A DNA stretch of 64,000 nucleotides from Verrucomicrobiota bacterium. GTDB taxonomy: Bacteria > Verrucomicrobiota > Verrucomicrobiia > Limisphaerales > UBA9464. Position numbers and translations under genes: made by a program. Within the stretch, counting starts at the first letter, position 1; every line of letters starts with the position of its first letter. A model generated the notes under the pieces. The model did no database searches. It was given only the letters and a program-made list of their open reading frames with translations, and had not been told where the DNA came from. The stretch spans positions 78,882 to 142,881 of the forward strand of contig CANGKZ010000002.1 of assembly GCA_947454705.1 (NCBI GenBank), given 5' to 3'. Below, piece by piece: positions 2,777 to 60,246 of the stretch.

Positions 2777-2980
2777 TTTTCGAGTGCGGTGCCAGAGCGG
2801 AGCGTCGACACCGCTTTCGAAACCGTTCGAGGCGTCGCACCGACCGGTGACTTCTCATCGTCGTAGAAAACATCCCGGAATCCACTCTCCGTCTCCGCGC
2901 CTCTGCGGTTCATTTGCCCTGCTGCGCGGTTGGCTTTGACCAAAGCGGCGTCGCGCTCTGCTTCCCGTCGCACTCCAAAA
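2777..2980. mobile_element. family-1 MITE/BIME-like element, copy A (about 204 bp, about 40-bp imperfect terminal inverted repeats)
   Basis: The left end is TTTCGAGTGCGGTGCCAGAGCGGAGCGTCGACACCGCTTTCGAAACC and the right end is CAAAGCGGCGTCGCGCTCTGCTTCCCGTCGCACTCCAAAA. The reverse complement of the right end aligns with the left end. It lies in the divergent gap between the sigma gene and polX. Confidence 0.6.
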
Positions 2981-8179: not shown

Positions 8180-10915
<2,736 letters not shown>

Positions 10916-13246: not shown

Positions 13247-13379
13247 TCGTGGAGCTTGATGATTTCGACGGAATCAGGCGATTCCCAAAATGGCACTGTG
13301 CGGGATCAACCGAGAAATGAAGTTTGAGCCGCAGATGGAAGTGGAGGGAGGCAGATGAAGCTGCATCCAGTGTGGTTCA

Positions 13380-22728: not shown

Positions 22729-22762
22729 GGTTGAAGGGTTGAAAAGTTGAAGCGTTGAAGAG
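22729..22762. repeat. GTTGAAGN octamer array (x4)
   Basis: ggttgaagggttgaaaagttgaagcgttgaaga lies 14 nt after the DUF62 stop. Confidence 0.6.
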
Positions 22763-22777: not shown

Positions 22778-22982
22778 TTTGGAGTGCGGTGGCAGAGCGG
22801 AGCGTCGACACCGCTTTCGAAACCGGCTGTGTTGCAACACCGACCGGCGACCCGCCGCATGCGTACCAGAAACAGAATTCTCAACCGCTCTGCGTCTCCG
22901 CGTCTCTGCGGTTCCTTGCTTCAGTTCGTCGGTGGAGGTTGAGCAAAGCGGCGTGGCGCTGCGCTTCCCGCCGCACTCCAAA
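22778..22982. mobile_element. family-1 MITE/BIME-like element, copy B (205 bp)
   Basis: The left end is TTTGGAGTGCGGTGGCAGAGCGGAGCGTCGACACCGCTTTCGAAACCGG...ACCGACCGG. The right end is GCAAAGCGGCGTGGCGCTGCGCTTCCCGCCGCACTCCAAA. It lies between convergent genes. Confidence 0.65.
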
Positions 22983-37224: not shown

Positions 37225-39473
37225 AGCACGATGCGTCAACCGAAGGACCGATTCCGGTACGCCCGCCCAACACGCTCCTGCGCGAGTGGACGGGGCCGAT
37301 GACGTCGGACCTCGTGCGGTCACCGGGCGCGTTCGGACTCGGCCAGGTCCCGTCGCGGCTCAAGCCGGATTCCGTCACCACCGCGGTGTGTGGGTTTTGC
37401 TCCACCGGATGCGGGCTCAAGCTGCACCTGCGCGAGGGTGAGGCGGTGAACGTCACGCCCGATCCGGCGTATCCGGTGAATTTGGGAATGGCGTGTCCCA
37501 AGGGCTGGGAAGTGCTCGCTCCGCTCGAGGCGACCGATCGCGTCACCACGCCGCTCCTGCGCAATCCGGCGAGCGGGAAGCTCGAACCGGTGTCATGGGA
37601 ACAGGCGATGACGGCGTTCGTCACGCGCATGCGCGGCGTGCAGGAGCGGCACGGAGCCCATTCCATCGCGTACCTGAGCACGGGGCAGATCTGCACCGAG
37701 GAAATGGCCTACCTTGGGGCGTTGTTCAAATTTGGGATGGGCGGATTGCACGGCGATTCCAACACCCGCCAGTGCATGGCCACCGCGCACGTGGCGTACA
37801 AGCAGAGTTTCGGATTTGATGCGCCGCCTTACACCTACGCGGATTTCGAGGAGTCGGACGTGCTGGTGTTCGTGGGCGCGAATCCGTGCATCGCGCATCC
37901 CATCCTGTGGCAGCGGGTGCTGAGGAATCCGCATCGGCCCGAGATCATCGTGCTGGACCCGCGCCGCACCGAGACCGCAGTCAACGCCACGCTGCATCTC
38001 CCGCTCGCGCCGAAGTCGGACCTCACCCTGCTGTACGGAATCGCGGCGGCGCTGATCGCCCGCGGTGCGGTGAACCAGGCGTTTGTCGAAGCCCACACCG
38101 AGGGCTACGAGGCGTTCGCCGCGTTCGTCGCGAACTTTACCCCGGAGCAGGCCTGTGCTGCAGCGGAGTTGGAGCGTACCGAGTTTGATCGATGCGTGGA
38201 TCTCATCGCCCGCGGCAAGCGCGTGAGCTTCTGGTGGACCATGGGAGTGAACCAGGGTCACGAGTCCACGCGCACTGCGCAGGCGTTGATCAACATCGCG
38301 TTGATGACCGGCAATATTGGTCGACCGGGCACGGGGGCGAATTCGATCACCGGTCAGTGCAACGCGATGGGCTCGCGGTTGTACGCCAATGCGACTTCGC
38401 TCCTGGGCGGACGTGACTTTGCCCAGCCTGCGCACCGCGCCCGTGTGGCGGCGGACCTCGGGATCGATCCCGCGCGTGTGCCCGACCAGAGTTCGTGGGC
38501 CTACGATCAAATCATCGATGGCATCGACCGGGGCGACATCAAGGGCCTGTGGGTGATCGCCACCAACTCCTCGCATTCGTGGATCGACGGCGGGAGGTTC
38601 GACCGGATTCTCGACAAGCTGGATTTCCTCGTGGTGCAGGACTTGTACGCCACCACGGACACGGCGCGTCGGGCGGACCTGATTCTCCCCGCCGCTGGAT
38701 GGGGGGAGAAGGAAGGCACGCTGATCAACAGCGAGCGGCGGATCGGCCGGGTGAAGAAGGTGCGTCGCGCGCCGGGCGTGGCGTTGAGTGATTTCGCGAT
38801 CTTCCGATTGGTCACTGCGGCGTGGGGATGCGGTTCGATGTTTGCGGAATGGAATTCCCCCGAGGCCGTGTTTCACGTGTTGAAGCGGCTCAGTGCGGGT
38901 CAGCCGTGCGACATGACCGGCATTCGCGACTACGCGCATTTGGATCAATCGGGCGGAATCCAATGGCCGTGGCCCGCCGCCGCGGGCGATGCCCTGGAAC
39001 AGGAGCCGGCCACGGAGCGGCGTTTGTTTTCCGATGGGCGCTTTCCCACGGCGTCGGGACGTGCGCGGTTCCTGTTCGATCCCCCGCGGGCCGTGGCCGA
39101 GCCCACCGATGCGGAGTATCCGTTTGTGCTGATGACCGGTCGCGGATCCTCGGCGCAGTGGCATACCAACACGCGCACGGGGAAGTCGGATATTTTGCGT
39201 CGGCTCTATCCGGCCGAGGCGTACGTGGAGATTCATCCCGCGGATGCTGCGCGGCTGGGGATCCGACCGCATGCGAAGGTGGTGGTGCGGACGCGTCGGG
39301 GCAGTTTGGAAGTGAATGCGTTTGTGACCCCGACCGTTCGGGAAGGGCAGGTGTTCCTGCCGATGCATTACGACGGCGTGAATCGCCTGACGGCACCGGC
39401 CTTTGATCCGCACTCACGTCAGCCGAGCTACAAGCACTGCGCTGCGGTGCTTGAGGCGAGGTTGAACGGTTGA
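37221..39473 (+). CDS. nasA: assimilatory-type molybdopterin nitrate reductase catalytic subunit (NasA/NarB-like), no Tat leader
   Basis: ATG 37221 overlaps the upstream stop (ATGA). It has the N-terminal [4Fe-4S] motif [13 protein letters not shown]...GMACPKG plus bis-MGD domain strings ([37 protein letters not shown]). The 5' part of track ORF 36978..39473 was discarded. Confidence 0.85.
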
Positions 39474-39476
39474 AGA
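39461..39476. repeat. short GTTGAA(C/G)N array overlapping the nasA stop codon
   Basis: gttgaacggttgaaga encodes the last residues ..RLNG* of NasA. It is paired with the inverted array at 39677-39708. Confidence 0.45.
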
Positions 39477-39490
39477 TGGCGCGGTGCGAA

Positions 39491-39654
39491 TTTGGAGTGC
39501 GGTGGCAGAGCGGAGTGTCGACACCGCTTTCGAGTCCGGGGCGAAGAAGAGACCGACCGGTCCCATCGCATGCGCGTGGGGTTCCTCGGTTGGTTTGTGT
39601 GTGACCACCGTTGAGCAAAGCGGCGTGGCGCTTCGCTTCCCGCCGCACTCCAAA
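39491..39654. mobile_element. family-1 MITE/BIME-like element, copy C (164 bp)
   Basis: The ends are TTTGGAGTGCGGTGGCAGAGCGGAGTGTCGACACCGCTTTCGAG ... GCAAAGCGGCGTGGCGCTTCGCTTCCCGCCGCACTCCAAAA. It is flanked by inverted GTTGAA arrays and lies between convergent genes. Confidence 0.65.
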
Positions 39655-39676: not shown

Positions 39677-39708
39677 CTTCAACCCTTCAGCTCTTCAACG
39701 TTTCAACC
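39677..39708. repeat. CTTCAACN octamer array (inverted partner of 39461-39476)
   Basis: The sequence is ctcttcaacccttcagctcttcaacgtttcaacc. Confidence 0.55.
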
Positions 39709-44871: not shown

Positions 44872-44912
44872 GGTTGAAGGGTTGAAAGGTTGAAGCGTTG
44901 AAGCGTTGAAGA
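44872..44912. repeat. GTTGAAGN octamer array (x5)
   Basis: The sequence is ggttgaagggttgaaaggttgaagcgttgaagcgttgaagag. It is preceded by a GC hairpin ccgggg-ccctgg-ccccgg right after the fabI stop. Confidence 0.6.
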
Positions 44913-44932: not shown

Positions 44933-45004
44933 TTTTGGAGTGCGGTGGCAGAGCGCAGCGTCGACACCGCTTTCGAAACCGGTCGGGGTGCAAAACCGAC
45001 CGGT
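44933..45004. repeat. family-1 element, solo left half (copy D)
   Basis: TTTTGGAGTGCGGTGGCAGAGCGCAGCGTCGACACCGCTTTCGAAACCGGTCGGGGTGCAAAACCGACCGG is present with no matching right end nearby. Confidence 0.55.
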
Positions 45005-45049
45005 TACCCACGCGACTCCCATCGTTCGCCCATTTAAGCCTTCAACCTG

Positions 45050-45095
45050 AAAACGGCAGTTTGAACCGCAGATGGACGCAGATGAACGCTGATGG
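45050..45095. repeat. family-2 (CAGATG decamer-iteron) element, solo end
   Basis: The sequence is aaaacggcagtttgaaCCGCAGATGGACGCAGATGAACGCTGATGG. A matching outer terminus ttcaactgccgttt lies at 45385-45398. Confidence 0.5.
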
Positions 45096-45374: not shown

Positions 45375-45420
45375 CCTTCAACGCTTCAACTGCCGTTTCT
45401 AGGTTCAACCCTTCAACCTC
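45375..45420. repeat. CTTCAACN arrays (inverted partner of 44872-44912), interrupted by a family-2 terminus
   Basis: The sequence is ccttcaacgcttcaactgccgtttctaggttcaacccttcaacctc. Confidence 0.55.
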
Positions 45421-54711: not shown

Positions 54712-55575
54712 ATGATTTCGGTAGGCAATCCGCGCTGCGATTGTCGCCCGAAGACTGCCATCGGAGCGGGTCCGAAGGATCCGGTAATCAACGGAGCCAA
54801 CATCGCGGTGCCGCGGGCCCTCGCCGTGGCTCTGGGGTTGCGGTTGCCGGTCGCAAACGATGGGACGGTGACCTTCAACAAGGACACCCTTGCGTCCAAC
54901 CCGGCGGGATTCCTTTGAGTGATCCAGCACAAGCTCTACGAAGTGCTCGGCACCCCGAGCAGCCTCCCCAACGGAGGCGGCGCGGTCCCCGCCACGATCG
55001 CGCCTGCGGATCTTTTCCGGTATACCGCCGCCGGCGCGCGGAGCTTTGAGTCTAAAAACGGCAGTTAAAGAAGAGTCCAACCACAGATGGACACGGATGA
55101 ACACAGATGGAACTGCGCGGAGCGGAAGGATTCCTAGATCACCCAAAAGGCCAAATGGTTCGAGTCCAGTCGAGCAATCCATCCCCTTCTCTATCTGTGT
55201 GGATCTGTGTTCATCTGTGGTTTCAACTGCCACTTCTAAGTTGATCCCAATGTGGCCAACGACCCCACCAAGAAGGCCTACTTCCGCATCAGCCCGTTCG
55301 GTCCCGACATCCAGGAATGGAATAACCTTCCGAATGGGGACGACCATGGCGACCGGGCGACGGGGACCTTCCCCGCCGCTCCCCAGGACTACACCGGTAA
55401 TCCCGCGGTATTCACCAGCATGTCCAACAGCGCTGCGGAATTGGTCCTGTTGGATGCCATCGGATCTGGCCTGGCTCCCGTGCCCGAACCCGCCGGCGTG
55501 GCGATGGCGGTGGGTGTCTCGCTGATGGGCTTTGCCGGATGGCGCCGCGTGCGCAGCCGGTCGATTCAGGGCTGA
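54712..55575 (+). pseudogene. decayed PEP-CTERM protein gene (metalloprotease-like remnant) with an in-frame TGA and a MITE insertion
   Basis: The first segment reads ...VPRALAVALGLRLPVANDGTVTFNKD...GFL*VIQHKLYEVLGTPSS...PADLFRYTAAGARSF, with the TGA at 54916-54918. It is interrupted by the family-2 element at 55056-55234. It resumes VANDPTKKAYFRI...LLDAIGSGLAPVPEPAGVAMAVGVSLMGFAGWRRVRSR (PEP-CTERM tail). No signal peptide is left at the N-terminus. Confidence 0.55.
55056..55234. mobile_element. family-2 MITE (179 bp) with decamer-iteron terminal inverted repeats and a possible TCTAA target duplication
   Basis: The left end is aaaacggcagttaaagaagagtccaaCCACAGATGGACACGGATGAACACAGATGG. The right end is CTATCTGTGTGGATCTGTGTTCATCTGTGGtttcaactgccact. 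TCTAA occurs at 55051-55055 and at 55235-55239. Confidence 0.65.
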
Positions 55576-56613: not shown

Positions 56614-56636
56614 GGCGTTTTGTTGCCCTCCCTCTA

Positions 56637-56685
56637 AATGCAGCGGTTTGAACCGCAGATCGACGCAGATAAACGCAGATGCGGA
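56637..56685. repeat. family-2 element, solo end
   Basis: The sequence is aaatgcagcggtttgaaCCGCAGATCGACGCAGATAAACGCAGATGCGG, starting 24 nt after the DapA-family stop. Confidence 0.5.
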
Positions 56686-56732: not shown

Positions 56733-56762
56733 TCTTCCTGCTTTCCTGCTTTCCAAATTCAT
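56733..56762. repeat. family-4 (TCCTGCTT iteron) element, solo end
   Basis: cttcctgctttcctgctttccaaattcatc is identical in core to the right end of the element at 59978-60105. Confidence 0.5.
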
Positions 56763-56871
56763 CCCACTCCGCGGCCCGCGCGGGGGCACTCGCAGGAATG
56801 TTGAAAAAGATTCCCGGTGAATCCGCCTTTGCCTCTTGGCTGAGGCGGATTTCCTGAACAGGCTTTGTCCC

Positions 56872-58344: not shown

Positions 58345-58500
58345 ACTGCGGTAACCACAGATGGACACAGATGAACACGGATAAAAAGGCGCGGAACGAA
58401 CGGATTTCGAGTTCATCCCGCAGTCGAAACACTGCTCTCTGTCTAGGGTCTACTCTTCCTACCTCCCATCTGTGTGAATCTGTGTCCATCTGTGGTAAAG
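58345..58500. mobile_element. family-2 MITE (about 155 bp)
   Basis: The left TIR is AACCACAGATGGACACAGATGAACACGGAT (58353-58382). The right TIR is CCATCTGTGTGAATCTGTGTCCATCTGTGGT (58466-58496). The outer limits are approximate. Confidence 0.6.
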
Positions 58501-59977: not shown

Positions 59978-60105
59978 GAATTTGGAAAGCATGAAAGCAG
60001 GAGGAACAGCCTGGGAAAATCCGAGCTCATTTTTTCCTAACTTCCAGCTCCTAGCTGCCAACTCTTCTGCATTTCCCCGTCCTGCTTTCCTGCTTTCCAA
60101 ATTAT
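59978..60105. mobile_element. family-4 small inverted-repeat element (128 bp)
   Basis: The left end is GAATTTGGAAAGCATGAAAGCAGGAGGA. The right end is GTCCTGCTTTCCTGCTTTCCAAATTAT. The ends are made of two tandem octamers each. Confidence 0.55.
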
Positions 60106-60144
60106 CCCCCTTCCGCTTCGGGCTTGGGCTCTTTCCTGTCTGGC

Positions 60145-60214
60145 GCCGGTCGGTTTTAGACTTCGGCCGGTTTCGAAAGCGGTGTCGGCGCTGCGCTCTG
60201 CCACCGCACTCCAT
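60145..60214. repeat. family-1 element, solo half in reverse orientation (copy E)
   Basis: The sequence is gccggtcggttttagacttcggCCGGTTTCGAAAGCGGTGTCGGCGCTGCGCTCTGCCACCGCACTCCA. It is the reverse complement of the left-end consensus, including the ACCGACCGG box. Confidence 0.55.
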
Positions 60215-60246
60215 AGGGCCGGTCCGCATCGGGACGTGGGGCTCAA

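Follow-up and report, generated by a model that had tools for sequence, protein, structure and literature searches.

Repetitive extragenic palindromes of the REP type and the transposases associated with them, i.e., the RAYTs, are well described (PMC3116915, PMC5581495), and the paradigm for their mechanism is provided by TnpArep and the REPs of Escherichia coli together with the IS200/IS605 elements (PMC3479197, PMC6006769). The closest described systems are the REPs and BIMEs of E. coli with TnpArep (4ER8) and the REPINs of Pseudomonas (Bertels and Rainey, 2011, PMC3116915). With these, the repeats analysed here share (i) a short, imperfectly palindromic unit whose 5' foot is conserved, (ii) an extragenic location near the 3' ends of genes without target-site duplication, and (iii) a Y1/HUH transposase gene bracketed by units, an organisation called REPtron; as in the BIMEs of E. 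coli, moreover, units of different subtypes form inverted doublets, comparable to the Y and Z REPs, with variable spacers. They differ from both in the foot, which reads GGA[G/C]T in place of GT[AG]G, and in the hairpin, which is longer, carries a conserved G.A mismatch and has a structured apical part. Whereas proteobacterial REPs are genus- or species-specific, the present unit is conserved across orders and phyla, and the host of the window, namely the whole 64-kb stretch of DNA that was analysed, belongs to the Verrucomicrobiota.

Among the TnpAREP transposases, subclass 2.8 is characterised by an HYH motif, a proline-rich N-terminus and a spread of close relatives over unrelated phyla (Quentin et al., 2018, PMC6006769). 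The transposase associated with the present repeats resembles it by the NHYH motif, a WPHAP.H N-terminus, a length of about 190-200 aa and genes flanked by long REPs, a likeness in these marks. Subclass 2.8, however, takes its definition from Cyanobacteria, where the feet read GT[AG]G and the tyrosine motif YIHYNP, in place of which the present proteins have Y[TV]HQNP and their units a different foot; non-canonical feet do occur in other TnpAREP classes (PMC6006769). In the same phylum as the window, the REP families GTAG-17 to GTAG-20 of Opitutus terrae are short stem-loops tagged GTAG or GTGG (Di Nocera et al., 2013, PMC3733652). These form head-to-head and tail-to-tail dimers and include intragenic copies, but carry the GTAG/GTGG tag, the comparison being one of descriptions as their sequences are shown in figures. 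The unit sequence was found neither in the searchable papers nor in the supplements of Di Nocera et al. The family is undescribed so far and the kind of element is well known: with a probability of about 0.85, the repeats constitute a REP/REPIN (BIME-like) family with a cognate RAYT, i.e., a REPtron.

Repeat units of the window and their anatomy

An nhmmer profile built from the units detects eight units of about 40 nt in the window, five called left and three called right, grouped as three inverted doublets (2778-2979, 22778-22982 and 39491-39654) and two single units (44934-44973 and 60176-60215). The five repeat sites of the initial annotation are all present, and its three full copies and two solo halves correspond to the doublets and the single units, with the refinement that the ends of a full copy are separate units. 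Its description of the right end as an imperfect inverse of the left holds for the inversion but not for the implied simple terminal inverted repeats, each end being a self-contained hairpin of a different subtype. With at most two mismatches, the left-end 19-mer GGAGTGCGGTGGCAGAGCG occurs five times in the window (2781+, 22781+, 39494+, 44937+ and 60194-) against 0.03 expected. For the adjoining 20-mer GACACCGCTTTCGAAACCGG there are likewise five occurrences, where 0.00 would be expected. A ACCGACCGG box lies downstream of each of the five left units (seven matches in the whole window, 1.41 expected), so that the shared left end with its nearby box, as originally proposed, is found at every left unit. 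The right end occurs three times, as the closing unit of each doublet.

Copy 1 comprises a left unit of the GT/AC stem subtype with a foot mutated to CGAGT (2778-2817, + strand, nhmmer 42.1 bits), a spacer (2818-2941, +) holding a ACCGACCGG box at 2839-2847 and a unit of a second repeat family (CTCTCCGTCTCCGCGCCTCTGCGGTTC) at about 2880-2912, and a right unit of a degenerate GC-type subtype, inverted with respect to the left one (2942-2979, - strand, 26.9 bits). In copy 2, the left unit is again GT/AC and contains the exact 19-mer (22778-22818, +, 50.1 bits); its spacer (22819-22944, +) includes a ACCGACCGG box at 22839-22847 as well as a palindrome (AACCGCTCTGCGTCTCCGCGTCTCTGCGGTT) that is a unit of the second repeat family, and the right unit, 38 nt long, is of the GC/GC subtype (22945-22982, -, 34.3 bits). 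The left unit of copy 3 (GT/AC; 39491-39531, +, 45.8 bits) starts 18 nt past the stop codon of a nitrate-reductase gene and is followed by a spacer (39532-39616, +) with a ACCGACCGG box at 39552-39560 and by a GC/GC right unit (39617-39654, -, 35.1 bits). Copy 4 is a single GT/AC unit (44934-44973, +, 51.9 bits) followed by a spacer-type second hairpin (AACCGGTCGG...CCGACCGGTT; 44974-45005, +) with a 10-bp stem in the DNA fold. Copy 5, a single GT/AC unit (60176-60215, -, 50.5 bits) located 32 nt past the stop codon of an aminotransferase gene on the same strand, is accompanied by a spacer module (60145-60175, -) with a ACCGACCGG box at 60146-60154.

On the evidence of Pfam-supported flanking ORFs and a simple home-made codon-usage gene caller, convergent genes flank copies 2, 3, 4 and 5, and the gap that holds copy 1 separates the divergent sigma-70 and PolX genes, in agreement with the earlier description of four convergent sites and one divergent gap. 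The full copies can indeed fold into a long hairpin, as had been proposed (copy 2 as RNA, -99.7 kcal/mol, z = -4.0; copy 3 as DNA, z = -4.6), and do so on both strands with about equal stability. A tblastn search for a Y1 transposase or RAYT encoded in the 64-kb window was empty, consistent with the absence of a cognate transposase noted at the outset.

In each unit, an imperfect hairpin follows a single-stranded 5' foot, YTT-GGA[G/C]T; the stem is GCG-NN-G / C-N'N'-CGC, a G.A mismatch is conserved, and the apical part reads GCAGAGCG-N-AGCGGCGA. From outside to inside, the left unit reads TTT-GGAGT-GCGGTG-GCAGAGCG-N-AGCGTCGA-CACCGC-TTT and the right unit, as its reverse complement, TTT-GGAGT-GCGGCG-GGAAGCG-N-AGCGCCA-CGCCGC-TTT; since a T-A pair of the one is a C-G pair in the other, each unit retains its own stem. 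Conservation sets in abruptly at the outer boundary, YTT|GGAGTGC (Y-T-T-G-G-A-[G/C]-T), and the canonical GT[AG]G foot is absent, the conserved foot reading GGAGT or GGACT. In minimum-free-energy DNA folds, three subtypes adopt this hairpin and leave a 5' foot of 8 nt unpaired.

The stem is borne out by covariation among 242 units gathered with the nhmmer profile from the window and 109 other loci. Out of 780 column pairs, mutual information is highest in two predicted stem pairs, namely 12-34 (GC 103, CG 26) and 13-33 (TA 73, CG 52), each 98% paired. When 61 distinct units are aligned with MAFFT blind to structure, 93% of the cells of the 10-pair hairpin are paired; three stem pairs, with 51 cells, are changed on both sides, a result reached by none of 500 shuffles, and slid controls give at most three cells. 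As a variant, a RAYT gene on a 6.6-Mb contig (L195, GCA_963852985.1) is flanked at 9909-9940 and 10587-10618 by short-loop units (TTTGGAGTGCGGTGGCGGGCAGACACCGCTTTGG) in which the apical part is replaced and the foot and basal stem are kept, which suggests that the enzyme reads the foot and the basal stem.

Arrangement and genomic context across loci

Altogether, the 242 units form 149 elements, i.e., 93 doublets and 56 single units, with a direct pair met only once. All 93 doublets are tail-to-tail, the feet being outside, with spacers of 19-178 nt, and in 80 of them the two units belong to different stem subtypes (GT with GC or CC). Target-site duplications, for which a search had been recommended, were not found: among 91 doublets, flanking direct repeats of 2-8 bp do not exceed chance. 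As a candidate, the classical MITE was rejected on this test.

Barring start-codon over-calls and a few intragenic cases, the elements lie outside genes. Convergent, tandem and divergent gaps hold 30, 33 and 11 elements, respectively, against a baseline of 76, 306 and 84, so that 12 convergent cases would be expected (chi-square p = 1e-7), these counts and those of orientation resting on a home-made gene caller. The distance from element to stop codon has a median of roughly 30-45 nt. With respect to the nearest upstream gene, the elements are oriented at random: 10 single units are sense and 13 antisense, and the GT-type unit of a doublet is proximal to the upstream gene in 21 cases and distal in 11. 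A strand-specific 3'-UTR element, as might be read from the window, where four of the five left units are sense just past a stop codon, was accordingly rejected on the larger sample of single units. In two Pyrinomonadaceae MAGs, a doublet lies midway along a very long NRPS-like ORF with the frame intact (L029 4712-4830 and L102 1572-1676), at a site that is apparently orthologous as the flanks are similar; these intragenic doublets are reminiscent of the intragenic REPs of Opitutus terrae. In an unusually dense region, Luteolibacter marinus carries more than 15 doublets around its RAYT gene (NZ_JACZFQ010000036.1, 32-55.7 kb; loci L078, L016 and L089), many of them in tandem at a spacing of about 220 nt.

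For copy 3, a filled or empty orthologous site was sought among nitrate-reductase orthologues at 96%, 86%, 85% and 84% identity, and none was found. The contig of the 96%-identical orthologue (L110) stops 23 nt past the stop codon, inside a GTTGAAG tract, and the orthologues at 84-86% are followed by other genes, synteny being lost. Among named relatives, the closest in nitrate reductase are Verrucomicrobiota MAGs, Opitutaceae and Oleiharenicola, with 72% identity at most.

The partner transposase and the breadth of the family

The initial annotation advised a search for a RAYT partner, and such a gene exists in relatives, flanked by units. When all ORFs of the loci selected by the 19-mer were clustered, one family recurred directly beside units. 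A RAYT gene directly flanked by units is found at eight loci (L035, L016, L073, L107, L108, L109, L195 and L196), e.g., in a Limisphaerales MAG (L035), where a 204-aa ORF stands between a unit and an inverted unit, in Luteolibacter marinus (L016), where two doublets lie on either side of the gene, in an Akkermansia sp. MAG (L073), where the gene is downstream of a doublet, and in a Pyrinomonadaceae MAG (L196), where PGAP names the gene (homologue P0257) a 'REP-associated tyrosine transposase'.

The protein of the Limisphaerales MAG (L035) scores 82.9 bits against the NCBIfam model REP_Tyr_transpos (NF047646; cutoff 80), 16 bits against the NCBIfam IS200 model (cutoff 55) and 20.3 bits against Pfam Y1_Tnp, below the cutoff of 23. 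Its best sequence match is E. coli TnpArep (4ER8, E = 1.1e-5), and 4ER8 is also the top PDB fold match of its AlphaFold model (E = 6.4e-7; pLDDT 60.8, i.e., moderate), followed by the transposases of IS200, IS608 and ISDra2. Its homologues, of about 189 aa, number in the thousands; among 20 of them, the motifs NHYHF (HUH) and Y147-x-H-Q-N-P are invariant, and the N-terminus reads WPHAP. The L. marinus protein scores 65.5 bits against REP_Tyr_transpos, below the cutoff of 80, and may derive from a pseudogene or a sequencing error, since the tblastn match continues past a TAG codon.

As the first 105 loci had been picked by the exact 19-mer, the identity of their left units holds by construction, and an independent sample was therefore drawn, consisting of 80 metagenome loci chosen by RAYT protein motifs alone. 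A unit lies within 350 nt of the RAYT gene in 53 of these 80 loci, upstream in 44/68 and downstream in 43/68, and units occur on both sides in 37 of the 57 loci where both flanks are present; in the other 27 of the 80, no unit is detectable within 350 nt. Downstream units of this sample typically begin 6-40 nt past the RAYT stop codon. The exact 19-mer is present in only 2 of the 80 loci, and most positions of the unit are still at least 90% conserved; those that vary are the covarying stem, the G/C of the foot and loop positions with indels. With thousands of RAYTs, their cognate units, covarying stems and an invariant foot, the family offers a natural data set on the way in which Y1 transposases read hairpins.

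Copies are not limited to this region, which settles a point raised by the initial annotation: by record titles, with taxon labels as deposited, the exact 19-mer occurs in at least 105 stretches from many genomes among the matches listed, several per MAG. The listed 105 divide into 70 from Verrucomicrobiota (including Opitutales, Verrucomicrobiales, Chthoniobacterales, Limisphaerales/Pedosphaerales and Methylacidiphilales), 19 from Acidobacteriota, mostly Pyrinomonadaceae/Blastocatellia, five from Hydrogenedentota, three from one Nitrospirales MAG and eight under other labels; single matches in Klebsiella and Bifidobacterium probably reflect binning errors or chance. A partner subtype with a CC/GG stem is particular to the Blastocatellia, which also have a RAYT of their own. 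Between Pyrinomonadaceae and Verrucomicrobiota, RAYT identity amounts to 66-70%, against 60-76% within Verrucomicrobiota; the inter-phylum values being no lower than those within the phylum, inter-phylum transfer or very strong long-term conservation is suggested.

We put at about even odds the broader proposition that a single REP/RAYT lineage, with a near-invariant 40-nt unit and RAYTs 60-83% identical, is common to many orders of Verrucomicrobiota, to the Blastocatellia/Pyrinomonadaceae of the Acidobacteriota, to Hydrogenedentota and probably to other phyla, through repeated inter-phylum transfer or extreme conservation. Either would conflict with the picture of REPINs as lineage-specific, strictly vertical and centred on Gammaproteobacteria, and cross-phylum sharing, if true, would bear on the notion of REPIN-RAYT systems as strictly vertical 'endosymbiont-like' replicators. 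This breadth is the sole unusual aspect of the repeat family, by which REPIN-RAYT biology is extended past the Proteobacteria.

Nature of the elements and neighbouring repeats

That the element is a non-autonomous one of BIME or MITE likeness, as the initial annotation had it, stands for the REP/BIME type, given the hairpin units, the inverted doublets and the RAYT in relatives, and falls for the classical MITE, given the lack of target-site duplication and the independent hairpins of two subtypes. A MITE that descends from a DDE-transposase element and bears terminal inverted repeats and target-site duplications would account for outer ends (TTTGGAGTGCGG...CCGCACTCCAAA) that resemble terminal inverted repeats and for the variable cores, but can hardly be credited, considering that the 91 doublets tested show no duplication of 2-8 bp beyond chance, that single units are common (56/149 elements), that either end forms a hairpin by itself and shows compensatory changes of its own, and that the sole recurrent neighbour gene encodes a Y1 transposase. 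The nature of this gene, with its HUH motif and with IS200, IS608 and ISDra2 transposases as next-best fold matches, might rather point to an autonomous insertion sequence of the IS200/IS605 type, of which the units would be the ends and the small copies internally deleted derivatives (PATEs); hairpins do bracket the gene on both sides, and similar RAYTs in different phyla suggest a horizontal spread like that of insertion sequences. We regard this as very improbable, for the protein stays far below the cutoff of the IS200 model and passes that of REP_Tyr_transpos, with TnpArep as best match by both sequence and fold. In addition, several doublets, variable in number, flank the genes in REPtron style, with no single defined left or right end, no tnpB lies beside the genes examined, and units outnumber genes, the window holding eight of the former and none of the latter.

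The position near stop codons, the enrichment between convergent genes, the long stable hairpins and the covarying stems could also be expected of a structured RNA or 3'-UTR device, e.g., a terminator or a structure protecting against 3' exonucleases, maintained by selection on transcripts, to which the RAYT would be secondary. Such a device is unlikely in view of the missing orientation preference in single units and doublets alike, the nearly equal folding on both strands, the absence of any Rfam match and the location of copy 1 in a divergent promoter gap. The reading as a long RNA hairpin is further weakened as covariation keeps the hairpin of the single unit and the two units of a doublet differ. 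The suggestion of a bidirectional terminator is not supported by the anatomy: on either strand, the hairpin has a T-run before it and an A-run after it, the reverse of the order in an intrinsic terminator, which, together with the lack of strand bias, makes a canonical terminator unlikely. The advised comparison with known RNAs gave no Rfam 15 family at gathering thresholds over the whole window, copy 2 yielding only a chance-level miRNA match (E = 3.2). REPs of E. coli stabilise upstream mRNA, and by analogy a stabilising effect of the present units on upstream mRNA is possible. A tRNA-like origin was also considered, as the left end bears a loose resemblance to the 5' part of tRNA-Ser, and was rejected, ARAGORN finding no tRNA in the window and Rfam none.

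Under the preferred reading as a REP/REPIN family with its RAYT, the full copies would be two units of different subtypes placed tail-to-tail around a spacer, and the solo halves single units. On single-stranded DNA, the folded unit with its foot would serve as the recognition site of a single-copy HUH/Y1 RAYT, presumably encoded between units elsewhere in the host genome as in the relatives; the enzyme would cut next to the unit and join it to a new extragenic site, the target remaining unduplicated. By analogy with the described systems, cleavage and mobilisation would both be the work of this enzyme. Copies would then persist, through purifying selection, mainly downstream of genes, where the harm is small.

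The REP family accounts for recurrent intergenic repeats, spurious ORFs (..ECGGRAERRHRF.., ..ALPPHSK..) and contig breaks in verrucomicrobial and acidobacterial assemblies. Two short-read (Logan) contigs from the same or a 96%-identical organism end in this manner, one (L106) inside a REP unit at window position 60184 and the other (L110) inside the GTTGAAG tract, which indicates that the repeats break assemblies.

This tract belongs to a set of tracts of two to five tandem octamers each (GTTGAAGN), located at 22730-22760, 44873-44911 and 39455-39475 on the forward strand and at 1089-1119, 39677-39707 and 45376-45390 on the reverse strand. All six are sense to the preceding gene and start between just before its stop codon and about 40 nt past it, one of them overlapping the stop. 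A tract also follows the orthologous nitrate-reductase gene of the 96%-identical relative (L110 4749-4776), and the octamers hardly occur in about 1 Mb of other loci; the tract is a lineage-specific, strand-specific 3' feature.

A second repeat family, built of heptads (AACCGCAGATGGACGCAGATGAACGC / GAACCGCAGAGGCGCGGAGGCGCGGAG), occupies 13301-13357, 45038-45094, 55043-55155, 56625-56681 and 58353-58429 of the window, with one unit within the spacers of copies 1 and 2 (about 2880-2912 and 22885-22915). It forms an inverted pair about 220 nt apart in locus L192 (4747-4775 and 4995-5025), and heptad-like repeats adjoin REP units in five further loci (L004, L007, L021, L058 and L084); the heptads may thus far be viewed as a candidate for a further REP-like family. 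In six loci of Verrucomicrobiae (L037, L079, L018, L051, L086 and L101), a small hairpin motif, TGGTTGCGGC-N-GCCGCG, comes after the right unit and may represent a further co-located palindromic unit. Lastly, an intergenic two-copy repeat (TCCTGCTTTCCTGCTTTCCAAATT...) occurs in the window at 56736-56772 and 60080-60116, with 86% identity over 37 nt, and one of its copies adjoins copy 5.
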